Shown here: piece by piece, positions 15,021 to 20,392 of the stretch
Layout: each line of letters begins with the position of its first letter
How positions within the stretch are numbered: position 1 is the stretch's first letter
Source of the DNA: Candidatus Heimdallarchaeota archaeon
GTDB taxonomy: Archaea > Asgardarchaeota > Heimdallarchaeia > Hodarchaeales > Hodarchaeaceae
Direction of reading: 5' to 3'
Assembly: GCA_048881705.1 (NCBI GenBank)
Contig: JBHLSH010000072.1
Span: 1-20,622 of the forward strand
DNA length: 20,622 bases
The notes under the pieces: model-generated
Seen by the model: the letters and a program-made list of their open reading frames with translations, nothing else
What the model was told of the DNA's origin: nothing
Database searches by the model: none
Made by a program: the position numbers and the translations under genes

Positions 15021-16250
15021 CTAGTCAATAAACCGAACTTTCAAACGCAGCTCATTGTCATTGCTTATTGAACTCAACGTAATCCGATCACCATCAGAAA
15101 GAACCTCCCCTAGGGTTACATCCTCAGGAATATGATGATTTCCTCGAAATCCGATATACTCAGTATGATTTCTATGACCCATTTCTTCCAATATGGATCG
15201 AAATAAGGAGTTCCTGCTTACACGGATCTCAGCTAGCTTTTTTCGTGAAGTAAATAATGATCCACAGACCAAACAGTCATGGTCAGGCACAAGATCGAAG
15301 GAATTAACCGTTCCAGTCAATGCAGAGTAAATTGTAAGGTGGGGAATCCGGTATCGATTTTCCTTTTGCAGTCTCTCAAGCGTAGATTTTTCATTCTTTT
15401 TTAGCTGAGACTTTTTTTCGAGAAAAAGGGCCTTGACGATTTCTTGGCTTTGAATGCCACTAATGACAGCATTGACGGTCACAAGACTTGGAACATGGAA
15501 GAGTATCATCTGAAGAAGCTCCATCTTTTCAAATTGTCCGAAATTATACTCCACCGCATAACGATTGGCCCGTTCAAATAGCCAAGCTACCTCCTCCGTT
15601 GAATTCTCATCTGGCATCCGTTGATATGTTGTATTAAAATCATACAAGGCCTTCCAACCGCAATGTTCTCTGATGCGTGGTATGCCGACTAAAGTACAGG
15701 GTTCAGTAAGGACCTGGAATTCTTCGGGTGGCAATGGATTATCACATGCCAGGCACGCTGAGGTTTCACGTTTCACATATTGAACCTGCCCAAAAAAACC
15801 GTCAGTTGCAGAATCGATATAGGGTTTGTACAGTTCAATGGCTTGTGCATTCAGAAATTGTCGTCCAATAAAGTTGTCAACACAACCTGCAATAATATCG
15901 ACTTCCTCAAACACCCTTTGTGGAATCGTTTGGAGGGGTTGACCGTAAATATCAACCTTCAGATCAGGATTCAGCCTTTTTGTTATTTCCTGTTTCGCTA
16001 TGACAACCTTTTGATCTCCAACATCCTTCTCACCAAACAACATTTGTCGATTTAGATTGGAGAATTCCACCGTATCCTGATCTACTAGAATGAGTCTTCC
16101 AATCCCAAGAAGCGCCAGATTTTTCGCTACCTCGCTCCCTGTCCCTCCTACGCCTGCTATGAGGACACTAGAGGTTGAAACTAGCTGTTGATCCCATATT
16201 ATAAGCCTTTCTTGGCGATCATACCTTGAGGCCCTAGAATCCCTTATCAT
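15021..16250 (-). CDS. Ubiquitin-like activating enzyme E1 (UBA2/UBA3-type architecture)
   Basis: RYDRQ, GVGGTG nucleotide loop, DQDTVEFSNLNRQMLF, CVDNFIGR, Zn pairs CLAC and CLVC, catalytic Cys motif EPCTLVGIPRIREHC (Cys185, 15696-15698), C-terminal ubiquitin-fold-like domain. Confidence 0.93.
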   Translation of the reverse strand: MIRDSRASRYDRQERLIIWDQQLVSTSSVLIAGVGGTGSEVAKNLALLGIGRLILVDQDTVEFSNLNRQMLFGEKDVGDQKVVIAKQEITKRLNPDLKVDIYGQPLQTIPQRVFEEVDIIAGCVDNFIGRQFLNAQAIELYKPYIDSATDGFFGQVQYVKRETSACLACDNPLPPEEFQVLTEPCTLVGIPRIREHCGWKALYDFNTTYQRMPDENSTEEVAWLFERANRYAVEYNFGQFEKMELLQMILFHVPSLVTVNAVISGIQSQEIVKALFLEKKSQLKKNEKSTLERLQKENRYRIPHLTIYSALTGTVNSFDLVPDHDCLVCGSLFTSRKKLAEIRVSRNSLFRSILEEMGHRNHTEYIGFRGNHHIPEDVTLGEVLSDGDRITLSSISNDNELRLKVRFID

Positions 16251-16346: not shown

Positions 16347-16598
16347 TTAACCACCTTTAATCTGGTCTGGAACAATCATTAGCATCGAATTTTGTTCTAT
16401 TCCATATGAATTCAAGGTGTTTGAGGGATTTAGCCGACGTCCCTTGTACAATAGGGCGATGGGAACCACCTCAGGGATATTAAATGCATCTCGTGCAGCA
16501 GAAATTGCCTGAAACACATTTCCTTGCAGATTTACATACTTCTCCTTGACGTTTTGATCTGGCGGCAATTGAGGATCCTTGAATCGAACTTTAATCAT
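16347..16598 (-). CDS. Ubiquitin-like modifier with C-terminal di-glycine
   Basis: LLYKGRRLNPSNTLNSYGIEQNSMLMIVPDQIKGG-stop aligns with ubiquitin [34 protein letters not shown]. ATG 16598 (83 aa) is preferred because GGAGGG lies upstream; GTG 16652 would give 101 aa. Confidence 0.92.
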   Translation of the reverse strand: MIKVRFKDPQLPPDQNVKEKYVNLQGNVFQAISAARDAFNIPEVVPIALLYKGRRLNPSNTLNSYGIEQNSMLMIVPDQIKGG

Positions 16599-16693
16599 CT
16601 TTTCAATGCCCTCCGAAGGGGGAGCGCGCTTGGAGCCTGAATCCCAGACCACATCTTTTTTCTTGCTAATTGAAATTCACCTTTGTATCTTTG

Positions 16694-17485
16694 CTAAACA
16701 TATAACAATCGTTCAATTTCTGACAATGTTTCCAGAAGATCAATTCGACCTTTGGCATAATCCTCCAAGGGCCCACGGATGAGTGGATATTTCGCGAGAA
16801 TTTCGCTCTCTAGACCAATCGGATAATTTTTCTTCCGTTTAATATTAAAGTTAATGACATCCCCCGTTTCCGCGTAAAATCGAACTGATATCTCTTTTTT
16901 AGAAAAAGAAGCATCGTAATTGCTCAGAATCTTCTGAATCAGAGGATCGTGTTCTTTTCTTTCGGTTGGAGACACCCCCGCAGTTGGAACAGGGCTTTCA
17001 CCCATTACTTCCGGTAGTGCGATCGAGGCCCGACGATGGATTTCCTCCAACACATCTAGCACGGAGCTTTTCTCAGGTCGCCACTCTTTCATAGATTCTA
17101 ATTCGGTCATCTCACAATCCAAAATCTCCCGTAATTTTGCGGGACCATCAATATAGGGGCGGTCAGGAAGGTCATCTAATACGAGAAGAAGGGTGAACGC
17201 GTACTGCCCGACCTGCATTTTAATCCTGAGCTTACCGATCTCATCACCCACATATTCTCCTGGGAAATTCTCCAGAATTTCCTGGGCGGTTTGGTATATT
17301 CGGTAATACACTTCAGACTCGATCTCTTCATCCAAACCTTGCTCGACTTCGGCAGGGGCCACGGATCTCTTCAAATAGTTGGTTAAATCACAATACTCAC
17401 ATTTAACCGCCTGTCCAGTGGTAGGTCTGTAAGGAAGGGGTGCCCCACAGCCGTTACAGGTGCTTACTTCAGTTAGCGCTGCCAT
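16694..17485 (-). CDS. Zn-ribbon plus UEV/RWD-like (inactive UBC-fold) protein
   Basis: N-terminal CNGCGAPL...CEYC. Central FTLLLVLDDLPDRPYI...LESMKEWRPEKSSVLDVLEEI resembles UEV/UBC-fold termini such as TSG101 YLPYLHEWKHPQSDLLGLIQ. No HPN motif. A second similar unit may lie at the C-terminus. Confidence 0.6.
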   Translation of the reverse strand: MAALTEVSTCNGCGAPLPYRPTTGQAVKCEYCDLTNYLKRSVAPAEVEQGLDEEIESEVYYRIYQTAQEILENFPGEYVGDEIGKLRIKMQVGQYAFTLLLVLDDLPDRPYIDGPAKLREILDCEMTELESMKEWRPEKSSVLDVLEEIHRRASIALPEVMGESPVPTAGVSPTERKEHDPLIQKILSNYDASFSKKEISVRFYAETGDVINFNIKRKKNYPIGLESEILAKYPLIRGPLEDYAKGRIDLLETLSEIERLLYV

Positions 17486-19846: not shown

Positions 19847-20392
19847 TTGCAGGATTTACACTCGAGACGCCTACGGGAAGAATTCAAGAGAATGCTCAAG
19901 GTATATCCTCCCAAGACAAGCCCAATACAGTGGAAAATTGTAAACAATGATCTCCATCATTATAGAGCCTGGATCAAGGGCCGAGAGGGAACTCCTTACG
20001 AAGGTGGAACCTGGGAAATCGCTGTAGAATTGCCTCCCAGCTATCCTTTTAAACCACCTGTCTGTAATTTCGTTACTCAGATCTATCATCCGAACATTGC
20101 GGTAGGGGAAACACGATGGAAATGGGGATCTAATGTCTGTTTAAGTTTAGTGAATTGGAATAATCTTGGTCAAACGGGGGGCTGGAAAGAAACCATTACC
20201 CTCCCGAGCGTGTTTGAACATCTAGAAATGATGCTAGAAGTCTACCAAACAACTGGAACGGATGATTTTCCGGAATATCTAGTCGACCCAAATGATCCCT
20301 TTAATCCTGATGCTGGTAAAGAAATGAGAGAGGAGTTTAGTACCTTTTGGAACAAGGCGGTCACGTGGACCAAAAAATTTGCTTCCTCCTAG
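19847..20392 (+). CDS. Ubiquitin-conjugating enzyme E2 (UBC fold)
   Basis: RRLREEF helix 1, IKGREGTPYEGG, LPPSYPFKPP, TQIYHPNI, catalytic Cys98 in SNVCLSL (20138-20140), DPNDPFNPDAG, AVTWTKKFA. TTG start with AAGGTGA upstream. Confidence 0.95.
   Translation: MQDLHSRRLREEFKRMLKVYPPKTSPIQWKIVNNDLHHYRAWIKGREGTPYEGGTWEIAVELPPSYPFKPPVCNFVTQIYHPNIAVGETRWKWGSNVCLSLVNWNNLGQTGGWKETITLPSVFEHLEMMLEVYQTTGTDDFPEYLVDPNDPFNPDAGKEMREEFSTFWNKAVTWTKKFASS

Follow-up and report, generated by a model that had tools for sequence, protein, structure and literature searches.

A probable ubiquitin-type modifier restricted to one Hodarchaeales lineage and encoded in a conserved cassette with E1, E2 and JAMM genes

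We analyzed a stretch of 20,622 nucleotides from Candidatus Heimdallarchaeota archaeon (Hodarchaeales; assembly GCA_048881705.1, contig JBHLSH010000072.1, positions 1 to 20,622), hereafter the window, in which the minus-strand open reading frame (ORF) at 16347-16652 encodes a small ubiquitin-like modifier. As the initial annotation had read, its product ends in ...MLMIVPDQIKGG, with the stop codon TAA placed directly after the Gly-Gly (GG) pair. The protein comprises 101 residues if translation starts at GTG 16652 and 83 residues if it starts at ATG 16598; residues are numbered throughout by the 83-residue form, counted from ATG 16598. In the window and in longer contigs of relatives, the modifier gene belongs to a conserved cassette, where it shares one strand with a gene here termed X and with the gene of an activating enzyme (E1), and where genes for a conjugating enzyme (E2), a JAB/MPN+ protease (180-197 aa) and a further 263-267-aa product are divergently transcribed. 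The cassette continues with a small Zn-ribbon gene, a gene here termed Y (560-600 aa), and the genes of an SPFH protein and an EAP30 (ESCRT-II-like) protein (Table 1). The reality of the modifier gene, its fold, family and distribution, the make-up of the cassette and its catalytic motifs were established computationally.

The modifier matched the Pfam family Rad60-SLD with 30.9 bits (cut-off 23.8), and both this family and Pfam ubiquitin were matched by 27 of 27 family members (E ≤ 1). In the AlphaFold/Foldseek comparison that the initial annotation had suggested, an AlphaFold2 model built on 27 homologues showed a confident beta-grasp fold with the element order strand-strand-helix-strand-strand and a mean predicted local distance difference test score (pLDDT) of 85.8, exceeding 95 in the core. 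Its top Foldseek matches had E values of about 1e-6 and template modeling (TM) scores of 0.78-0.87 by target, and VIA-align Z scores ranged from 12 to 13.4 against ISG15, ubiquitin, NEDD8 and the ubiquitin of Caldiarchaeum. Together with ubiquitin variants, SUMO1 and the ubiquitin-like domain of Dsk2, these proteins made up the top structural matches, with effectively tied scores, and the top 50 in Foldseek and VIA-align consisted of ubiquitin-type structures only. A feature search of the ESM Atlas returned clusters that were either unnamed or assigned to ubiquitin/Rad60-SLD. The gene is under strong purifying selection: across 23 genomes, the proportions of synonymous (pS) and nonsynonymous (pN) differences over the 83 codons of the core were 0.73 and 0.063, respectively, with a pN/pS ratio of 0.086.

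Considering these features, it is highly probable from sequence and predicted structure that the protein is a conjugatable ubiquitin-type modifier with a beta-grasp fold and a GG end, a member of a small, lineage-restricted Hodarchaeales family and the third paralogue in its genome. Fold, Pfam matches and homologues bear out the divergent ubiquitin-like modifier first proposed for this gene, and BLASTP gave no alignment to the canonical ubiquitin of the same genome. A literature search brought up no account of the family. On present evidence, we regard the family as a sound if slightly unusual example of a class already known, with no new principle involved.

The alignment register with ubiquitin was taken from HMMER searches against ubiquitin chains of the Protein Data Bank (PDB) and from the comparison of the family profile with eukaryotic ubiquitin by hhalign, and both agreed. 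In these two alignments, R54 stands for K48 of ubiquitin (LLYKGRRL versus LIFAGKQL) and Q69 for K63, in agreement with the initial observation that equivalents of both lysines are missing. Ubiquitin residues I44, V70, L71 and R72 correspond to L50, V76, P77 and D78 of the modifier, and L50 and V76, at the positions of the I44/V70 patch, are hydrophobic and invariant in the family. The last four residues of ubiquitin, LRGG, are matched by five (QIKGG), so that the tail is indeed one residue longer and lacks Arg72, whose place is taken by Asp78. The hhalign alignment spans residues 21-78 of the modifier and leaves the first 20 unaligned; for its first strand and the Pro-rich beta1-beta2 loop of nine residues (DPQLPPDQN), ubiquitin offers no equivalent. 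When the N-terminal half was searched separately against PDB sequences, no meaningful match appeared, and the poor N-terminal similarity to ubiquitin stated at the outset is thus confirmed.

Three blocks are invariant or nearly so in the family, namely FKDPQLPP, PIALL.KGRR.NP and IVPDQIKGG. Among 58 distinct members, the K48-equivalent position holds Arg in 51, Lys in five and Val in two, and the K63-equivalent position is Glu or Gln throughout. K7 is invariant (58/58), whereas K52, located in the K48 loop two positions N-terminal to the K48 equivalent, is present in 57 members, the lone exception carrying a Lys at position 54; K81 and K20 are found in 56 and 52 members, respectively. Since K7 and K52 are nearly invariant, acceptor lysines are available, and the earlier prediction of mono-modification is left without support. 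The modifier therefore resembles eukaryotic ubiquitin in its fold and GG end, and ubiquitin is its best profile match, but it differs in identity (about 25% over 57 columns), in the conservation of K7 and K52 instead of K48 and K63, and in being encoded as a monomer with no fusion partner.

With regard to the C-terminus, the GG pair is kept in all 58 distinct members. It is directly followed by the stop codon in the window's species and in nearly all genomes of the same genus, and it is followed by 1-10 further residues in 12 of 27 aligned relatives (also in loci L013, L014, L032 and L041), which indicates that the family as a whole uses C-terminal processing. The initial proposal that no processing is needed consequently holds for the clade of the window but not for the family. 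The same applies to the role of deconjugase assigned to the JAMM enzyme: judged from these termini, the protease would be restricted to deconjugation in the GG-stop clade alone, whereas relatives with residues beyond GG need processing.

Upstream of ATG 16598, an N-terminal extension is in frame in 22 of 22 same-genus loci. Relatives begin with M-S-K-K-D-V-[VI]-W-D-S..., about 24 residues ahead of the core. In the window, GGTGA at 16681-16677 overlaps an in-frame TGA (16679-16677), after which the sequence reads ATT TCA ATT AGC AAG AAA AAA GAT GTG; the ATT at 16670-16668 stands where relatives have ATG, with a 6-nt spacer after the conserved GGTGA. This ATT is common to four assemblies of the subclade (including L017, L018 and L037), and other species of the genus show ATG, TTG or GTG at or near it. 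The KKDV[VI]WD block, which doubled as the search pattern (0 same-genus loci failed it), is kept despite synonymous change (pS 0.78, pN 0.03). More distant relatives have Leu or Thr in place of the internal Met and can therefore make the long form only. As for the other starts, GTG 16652 is a Val codon that reads GTG in just 4 of 23 genomes, and a GGAGG motif (16614-16610) lies 11 nt ahead of ATG 16598. In the AlphaFold2 model of the 101-residue form, residues 1-8 had pLDDT values below 50 and residues 11-20 averaged 68. From these sequence features, the extension is probably flexible, about 24 residues long and, in the subclade, initiated at the non-ATG start ATT 16670. Of the SUMO-like disordered N-terminus that had been attributed to a 101-residue start, the extension itself is thus real in the family, of low confidence in the model and probably disordered, but GTG 16652 is no conserved start.

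In order to delimit the family, homologues were collected with several searches. A word-indexed search yielded 45 homologue clusters with 55-100% identity, and those with a named source were nearly all from Hodarchaeales/Hodarchaeota, with single metagenome-assembled genomes labelled Odin-, Thor- or Heimdallarchaeota. An exhaustive HMMER search of 1.84 billion representatives retrieved only some six clusters with a single domain (50% level); the remaining hits were polyubiquitins that scored through repetition. Profile searches over 400 Asgard species genomes, on which all counts of genomes below are based, detected the family in 25, with 20 of the 21 genomes of the window's genus and one of the two of the sister family. 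It was found in 0 of 31 and 0 of 12 genomes in the other large families of the class, and isolated matches occurred elsewhere (one strong, on a 1.9-kb contig, and two weak). Full-length X showed the same set (20 of 21 genus genomes and the sister genome G078), and elsewhere only single RWD-domain matches within larger proteins were found. Two copies of the modifier stood apart. One is a second, partial copy in a same-genus genome (L045, G066:C1:1389201-1389350; profile positions 57-106), and the other is a 54%-identical copy from a different Asgard family (L042, G119:C139:133-393; 1.9-kb contig), which could reflect patchy distribution or a binning error.

The genome of the window encodes two other modifiers. 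Its canonical ubiquitin, on contig C15 (L002:351-1722), has 80 residues, the motif FQGKQL, the end TRTTGG-VDD and its own 343-aa E1; this family occurs in 135 of the 400 genomes and at least 24 families. The locus is also adjoined by a KaiC/RecA-like ATPase gene. A modifier ending in IP(H/V)STAG, hereafter the STAG-ending modifier, is encoded in two tandem copies on contig C57 and occurs in 192 genomes. Its locus (G000, L015:8104-11757) further contains genes for a 420-aa E1, a possible E2 remnant, a 269-aa JAMM protein and a 369-aa RING-like membrane protein, and both copies carry acidic/SKTP-rich N-terminal tails. The E1 of the window and that of contig C57 are paralogues with 35% identity over 367 aa, and the alignment with the E1 of contig C15 is confined to the adenylation domain. 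As the canonical ubiquitin and the STAG-ending modifier each have their own E1 in the same genome, the modifier of the window represents a third, lineage-restricted paralogue.

Regarding the enzymes of the cassette, the best PDB matches of the E1 were Uba1 (4e-32), UBA3 (1e-29, query 21-274), SAE2 (4e-25), ThiF (7e-23) and UBA5 (7e-19), and those of the E2 were Ubc1, UBE2K and UBE2D, at about 1e-16. Over the first 67 residues, the protease fragment at the end of the window shares 85% identity with the JAB gene product (180 aa) encoded behind the E2 gene in L017. This L017 orthologue carries the complete HxHx7Sx2D motif HSHPGYGLFLSQTD and matches Pfam JAB and Prok-JAB. The identity of the fragment as a JAMM gene is thereby confirmed through synteny, even though the window holds just 68 codons of the JAMM enzyme invoked in the initial annotation. 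After the JAMM gene, past the window's end, relatives carry the conserved 263-267-aa gene (L017:961-1752, L019:6782-7585), which matches no Pfam family. The 263-aa gene of L017 was considered as a paralogue of X and rejected, the two being unrelated.

The candidate ligase (E3), Y, lies conserved beside the E1 gene in relatives. A profile of five Y members matched, in the PDB, UFL1 (8b9x_A, 2.7e-5, Y 37-108; 8c0d_A, 6.3e-4), the PCI winged helix of CSN2 (1.5e-3) and the RING of TRIM32 (3.9e-3). Pfam PCI was matched by four of the five orthologues and Pfam E3_UFM1_ligase by two, one of them (L013) above the cut-off (23.9 versus 23.2 bits). In the internal Cys-rich fingers of Y, many Cys residues are invariant. 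This combination of domains is not known from any eukaryotic ligase. The AlphaFold2 model of X had a pLDDT of 79.5, and its best Foldseek matches were FANCL chains (1e-4 to 8e-4), followed by E2 enzymes. A role of X as a catalytic E2 was ruled out, its sole non-ribbon Cys (C124) being missing in two orthologues. The predicted complex of X (residues 52-263) and the modifier core (score 0.25, mark 0.32) speaks neither for nor against binding. Single X-type RWD domains were also found within proteins of about 550-600 aa in another large Asgard family (f20).

Among the neighbours, a gene of 104-116 aa occupies the same place and strand as the small Zn-ribbon gene in L017, L018 and L019, and the EAP30-like and SPFH genes keep the same order in L017 and L019.

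Table 1. Features of the modifier locus and their coordinates in the window
Feature	Position	Strand	Basis and remarks
Ubiquitin-like modifier, core ORF	16347..16598	-	83 aa from ATG 16598; TAA at 16349-16347; Pfam, AlphaFold2, pN/pS
N-terminal extension codons ISKKKDVVWDSGSKRAPPSEGIEK and ribosome-binding site	16599..16681	-	Sequence, relatives, synonymous change
E1, 409 aa, ThiF fold and catalytic-Cys region	15021..16250	-	Pfam ThiF 1.9e-50; 96 nt downstream of the modifier gene
E2, 181 aa, HPN and catalytic Cys (IYHPN...NVCLSL)	19847..20392	+	Pfam UQ_con 3.5e-23
JAMM/MPN+ protease, N-terminal 68 codons	20417..20620	+	Gene ends at contig end; Prok-JAB E 0.007, below cut-off
X, 263 aa, Zn-ribbon and tandem RWD/UBC-like (FANCL DRWD-like)	16694..17485	-	Directly upstream of the modifier gene
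Y, 588 aa, candidate E3	12672..14438	-	UFL1-like winged helix, PCI-like winged helix, Zn fingers, C-terminal RING-like finger
Small Zn-ribbon protein, 116 aa	14631..14981	+	Between E1 and Y; weak Zn-ribbon Pfam matches
EAP30/Vps22-36-like protein	10754-11779	+	Pfam; conserved neighbour
SPFH/Band 7 protein	11773-12675	+	Pfam; conserved neighbour
TPR protein, 616 aa	17904..19754	+	Pfam TPR_12 1.8e-31; between X and E2; outside the conserved cassette

Pairwise comparison of family profiles with hhalign was used to find the nearest known family. The modifier family scored 96.2% with eukaryotic ubiquitin (57 columns, E 2.5e-9), 94.6% with the STAG-ending modifier (73 columns, nearly full length), 65% with canonical Asgard ubiquitin (54 columns), 18% with SUMO1 (33 columns) and 10.7% with UFM1 (49 columns). 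The SUMO (vertebrate SUMO1 only) and UFM1 profiles consisted of animal sequences only, and this low diversity weakens both comparisons; their 78-residue probes were each 100% identical to database proteins. As a control, canonical Asgard ubiquitin scored 99.1% with ubiquitin (76 columns) and 96.4% with SUMO1. By profile, the STAG-ending modifier is thus the nearest full-length relative, and it shares with the modifier of the window an N-terminal low-complexity extension and a Pro after beta5. In contrast, the two are only about 22% identical, the STAG family has a single Gly five residues past the Pro where the modifier of the window has GG six residues past it, and its distribution (192 genomes) is far wider (versus 25).

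In maximum-likelihood (ML) trees (LG+C20 with posterior mean site frequencies, 84 columns), the modifier family formed one group (96/90), placed with the STAG-ending modifier and UFM1 (90/72 for the grouping with UFM1) and apart from ubiquitin, SUMO and canonical Asgard ubiquitin (98/98). This split persisted after removal of UFM1 (96/90) or of the modifier family. However, the approximately unbiased (AU) test left a placement of the family with ubiquitin, SUMO and canonical Asgard ubiquitin acceptable, with a log-likelihood 2.59 higher and a p-AU of 0.71. The grouping with UFM1 and the STAG-ending modifier was therefore dropped as a decisive argument, since a tree constrained to the alternative proved no less likely, and the bootstraps were not relied on; the alignment is short (84 columns) and several branches are very long, which leaves room for either deep placement. 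When the window family was omitted, the STAG-ending modifier grouped with eukaryotic UFM1 (100/99). Asgard Ufm1 homologues have been published (PMC12962969), and the STAG-ending modifier may be the homologue described there.

All biochemical steps, the substrates and any tie to the neighbouring ESCRT-II-like and SPFH genes are matters that we infer, the most likely course being an ordinary E1-E2-E3-JAMM cycle. The adjacent single-chain E1 would adenylate Gly83 and load the modifier onto its own catalytic Cys, from which the E2, with its HPN-Cys, would take it over. The winged-helix and RING protein Y, possibly together with the double-RWD protein X, would guide the transfer to substrate lysines, and the JAMM protease would take the modifier off its substrates. 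In relatives with residues beyond GG, the precursor could be trimmed by the JAMM protease itself or by another protease. The expanded loop with KDPQLPP, Asp78 at the position of ubiquitin Arg72 and the one-residue-longer tail would be the likely specificity elements that insulate this cycle from the two other modifier systems of the genome.

Several observations weigh against a conjugatable ubiquitin-type modifier served by such a cycle. The Pfam ubiquitin score of 26.0 bits barely exceeds the cut-off of 25.4, and the AU result cited above leaves more than one deep placement acceptable. Three candidate starts remain (ATT 16670, GTG 16652 and ATG 16598). In addition, the JAMM gene is truncated in the window, and the non-conserved TPR gene lies between the modifier side and the E2/JAMM pair. 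This TPR gene is absent at that position in L019 and in L017, whose modifier is 99% identical to that of the window.

Against this background, other explanations were weighed. It is conceivable, although doubtful, that the modifier, Y and X are a relict that bridges ubiquitin-type and UFM1-type conjugation, and that the UFM1/UFL1 pathway grew from such a hybrid. In that case, a UFL1-like scaffold would have served a ubiquitin-style E1/E2 cascade as early as in the archaeal lineage often placed closest to eukaryotes. Under this hybrid, K7 and K52, the expanded loop and the ESCRT-II-like and SPFH neighbours could mark a dedicated, membrane-linked pathway, insulated from the other modifiers.

A UFM1-family modifier, with an archaeal cassette related or ancestral to the UFM1-UBA5-UFC1-UFL1 pathway, is unlikely. 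An echo of UFM1 is real in a few motifs and in the UFL1-like domain of Y, but every comparison for UFM1 membership that had a clear outcome went against it. The N-terminal winged helix of Y matches UFL1, both in the PDB (8b9x_A, 2.7e-5) and through Pfam E3_UFM1_ligase above the cut-off in one orthologue, but Y also carries a RING, which UFL1 lacks to our knowledge. Short motifs are shared between the modifier and UFM1, and weak full-length HMMER alignments exist (E about 0.3; query 3-79 versus UFM1 3-80), as does the hhalign alignment of 49 columns; its score of 10.7% nevertheless contrasts with 96% for ubiquitin. Motifs picked by eye (KV.FK, DP.LP, AA..F.[IV]P, [LI]NP..T and L.I[IV]P) were abandoned as evidence, the UFM1 profile test not being significant. 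Pfam Ufm1 (PF03671) was unmatched in 27 members at E ≤ 1, and over the whole genome it left the modifier locus unmatched, its only match being sub-threshold, elsewhere, and in a sequence containing a stop. UFM1 was missing from the top 50 structural matches, which does not exclude it. The ML trees lean towards UFM1 and the STAG-ending modifier (98/98; 96/90 without UFM1), and there are the published Asgard homologues, but the AU test tolerates the ubiquitin/SUMO placement. Moreover, the modifier ends in GG and not in VG, the E1 is nearer to Uba1 (4e-32) and UBA3 than to UBA5 (7e-19), and the E2 is of the canonical HPN type (UQ_con 3.5e-23), unlike UFC1.

We consider it very unlikely that the protein is a SUMO-like modifier, that is, one with a disordered N-terminus, a SUMO-like tail and readers with SUMO-interacting motifs. 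Its best single Pfam match is the SUMO-type domain Rad60-SLD (30.9 versus 26.0 bits for ubiquitin), the family has an N-terminal extension, and a polar tail precedes GG as in SUMO/Smt3. This contrasts with the profile comparison, in which SUMO1 (vertebrate sequences only) reached 18% over the C-terminal 33 columns, as compared with 96% for ubiquitin and with 96% between the genome's canonical ubiquitin and SUMO1. Foldseek did place SUMO1 chains near the top, but the structural scores do not tell SUMO from ubiquitin, NEDD8 or ISG15. The tail exceeds that of SUMO1, too, by one residue, the single-chain E1 is closest to Uba1/UBA3 with no SAE1/SAE2-type heterodimer, and the E2 is nearest to Ubc1/UBE2K/UBE2D and not to Ubc9. 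The SUMO analogy drawn in the initial annotation is accordingly unsupported.

Highly improbable as well is a non-conjugated ubiquitin-like adaptor that binds X, Y or the ESCRT-II-like proteins. The RWD/UEV-like X and the EAP30 protein are indeed neighbours of the modifier, but the terminal GG and the tail are invariant, the residues beyond GG in 12 of 27 relatives imply a cleavage that exposes GG, and a dedicated E1, E2 and JAMM protease are conserved. Finally, a ThiS/MoaD/SAMP/Urm1-like beta-grasp protein that carries sulfur or has a dual function, with ThiF-type activation and a thiocarboxylate, is scarcely credible. A GG C-terminus does lie beside a ThiF-family enzyme, but none of the 27 members matched the ThiS, MoaD or Urm1 families of Pfam, and the top 50 by structure were all ubiquitin-type (absence of ThiS/MoaD from that list does not exclude them). 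The E1 has the catalytic-Cys region of canonical E1s and scores lower with ThiF/MoeB than with these, and the cassette retains E2, JAMM and RING genes. Among the window's ORFs that were scanned, Pfam detected no rhodanese on the E1 and no thiamine or molybdopterin gene. The clustering with sulfur carriers that the initial annotation had named as a counter-indication was thus not observed.

The conjugatable ubiquitin-type modifier can be compared with ubiquitin systems already described in archaea, such as the operonic Ub-E1-E2-RING-Rpn11 system of Caldiarchaeum subterraneum (PMC6043591) and the Asgard Ub-ESCRT clusters (PMC9192718). In common with the archaeal operons, the locus combines a GG-ended beta-grasp modifier with a single-chain E1, a UBC-type E2, a RING protein and a JAMM/Rpn11-like protease, and in structure the Caldiarchaeum ubiquitin ranks with the modifier's closest matches (Z 12.8). 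As in the Asgard Ub-ESCRT clusters, the modifier gene adjoins ESCRT-related genes. Unlike the archaeal operons, the modifier forms a separate sequence family (no BLASTP alignment with the genome's canonical ubiquitin and 65% by hhalign with canonical Asgard ubiquitin) and is set apart by its extended N-terminus, its longer tail, the Asp that replaces Arg72 and the expanded, invariant KDPQLPP loop. Further differences are the candidate E3, which joins a UFL1-like winged helix, a PCI winged helix and a RING, the extra Zn-ribbon/double-RWD partner, and a distribution that hardly extends beyond a single genus-level lineage.

Among prokaryotes, the ubiquitin systems of Asgard archaea give the best view of the origin of eukaryotic protein tagging, and Hodarchaeales is an archaeal lineage often placed closest to eukaryotes. 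The genome studied here runs three separate sets of modifier and E1, the third of which is confined to one Hodarchaeales lineage. In eukaryotes, E1 specificity is set by Arg72, the length of the tail and the beta1-beta2 loop. Since the third modifier differs at these E1-specificity positions, it provides a natural test case for the insulation of paralogous modifier pathways. The candidate E3 joins a UFL1-like winged helix to a RING and its partner X shares the double-RWD fold of FANCL, combinations that are not known to occur together among eukaryotic enzymes. Reconstitution of the cascade, should it succeed, would reveal which specificity rules predate eukaryotes, and whether UFL1-type scaffolds first served ubiquitin-type E2s.

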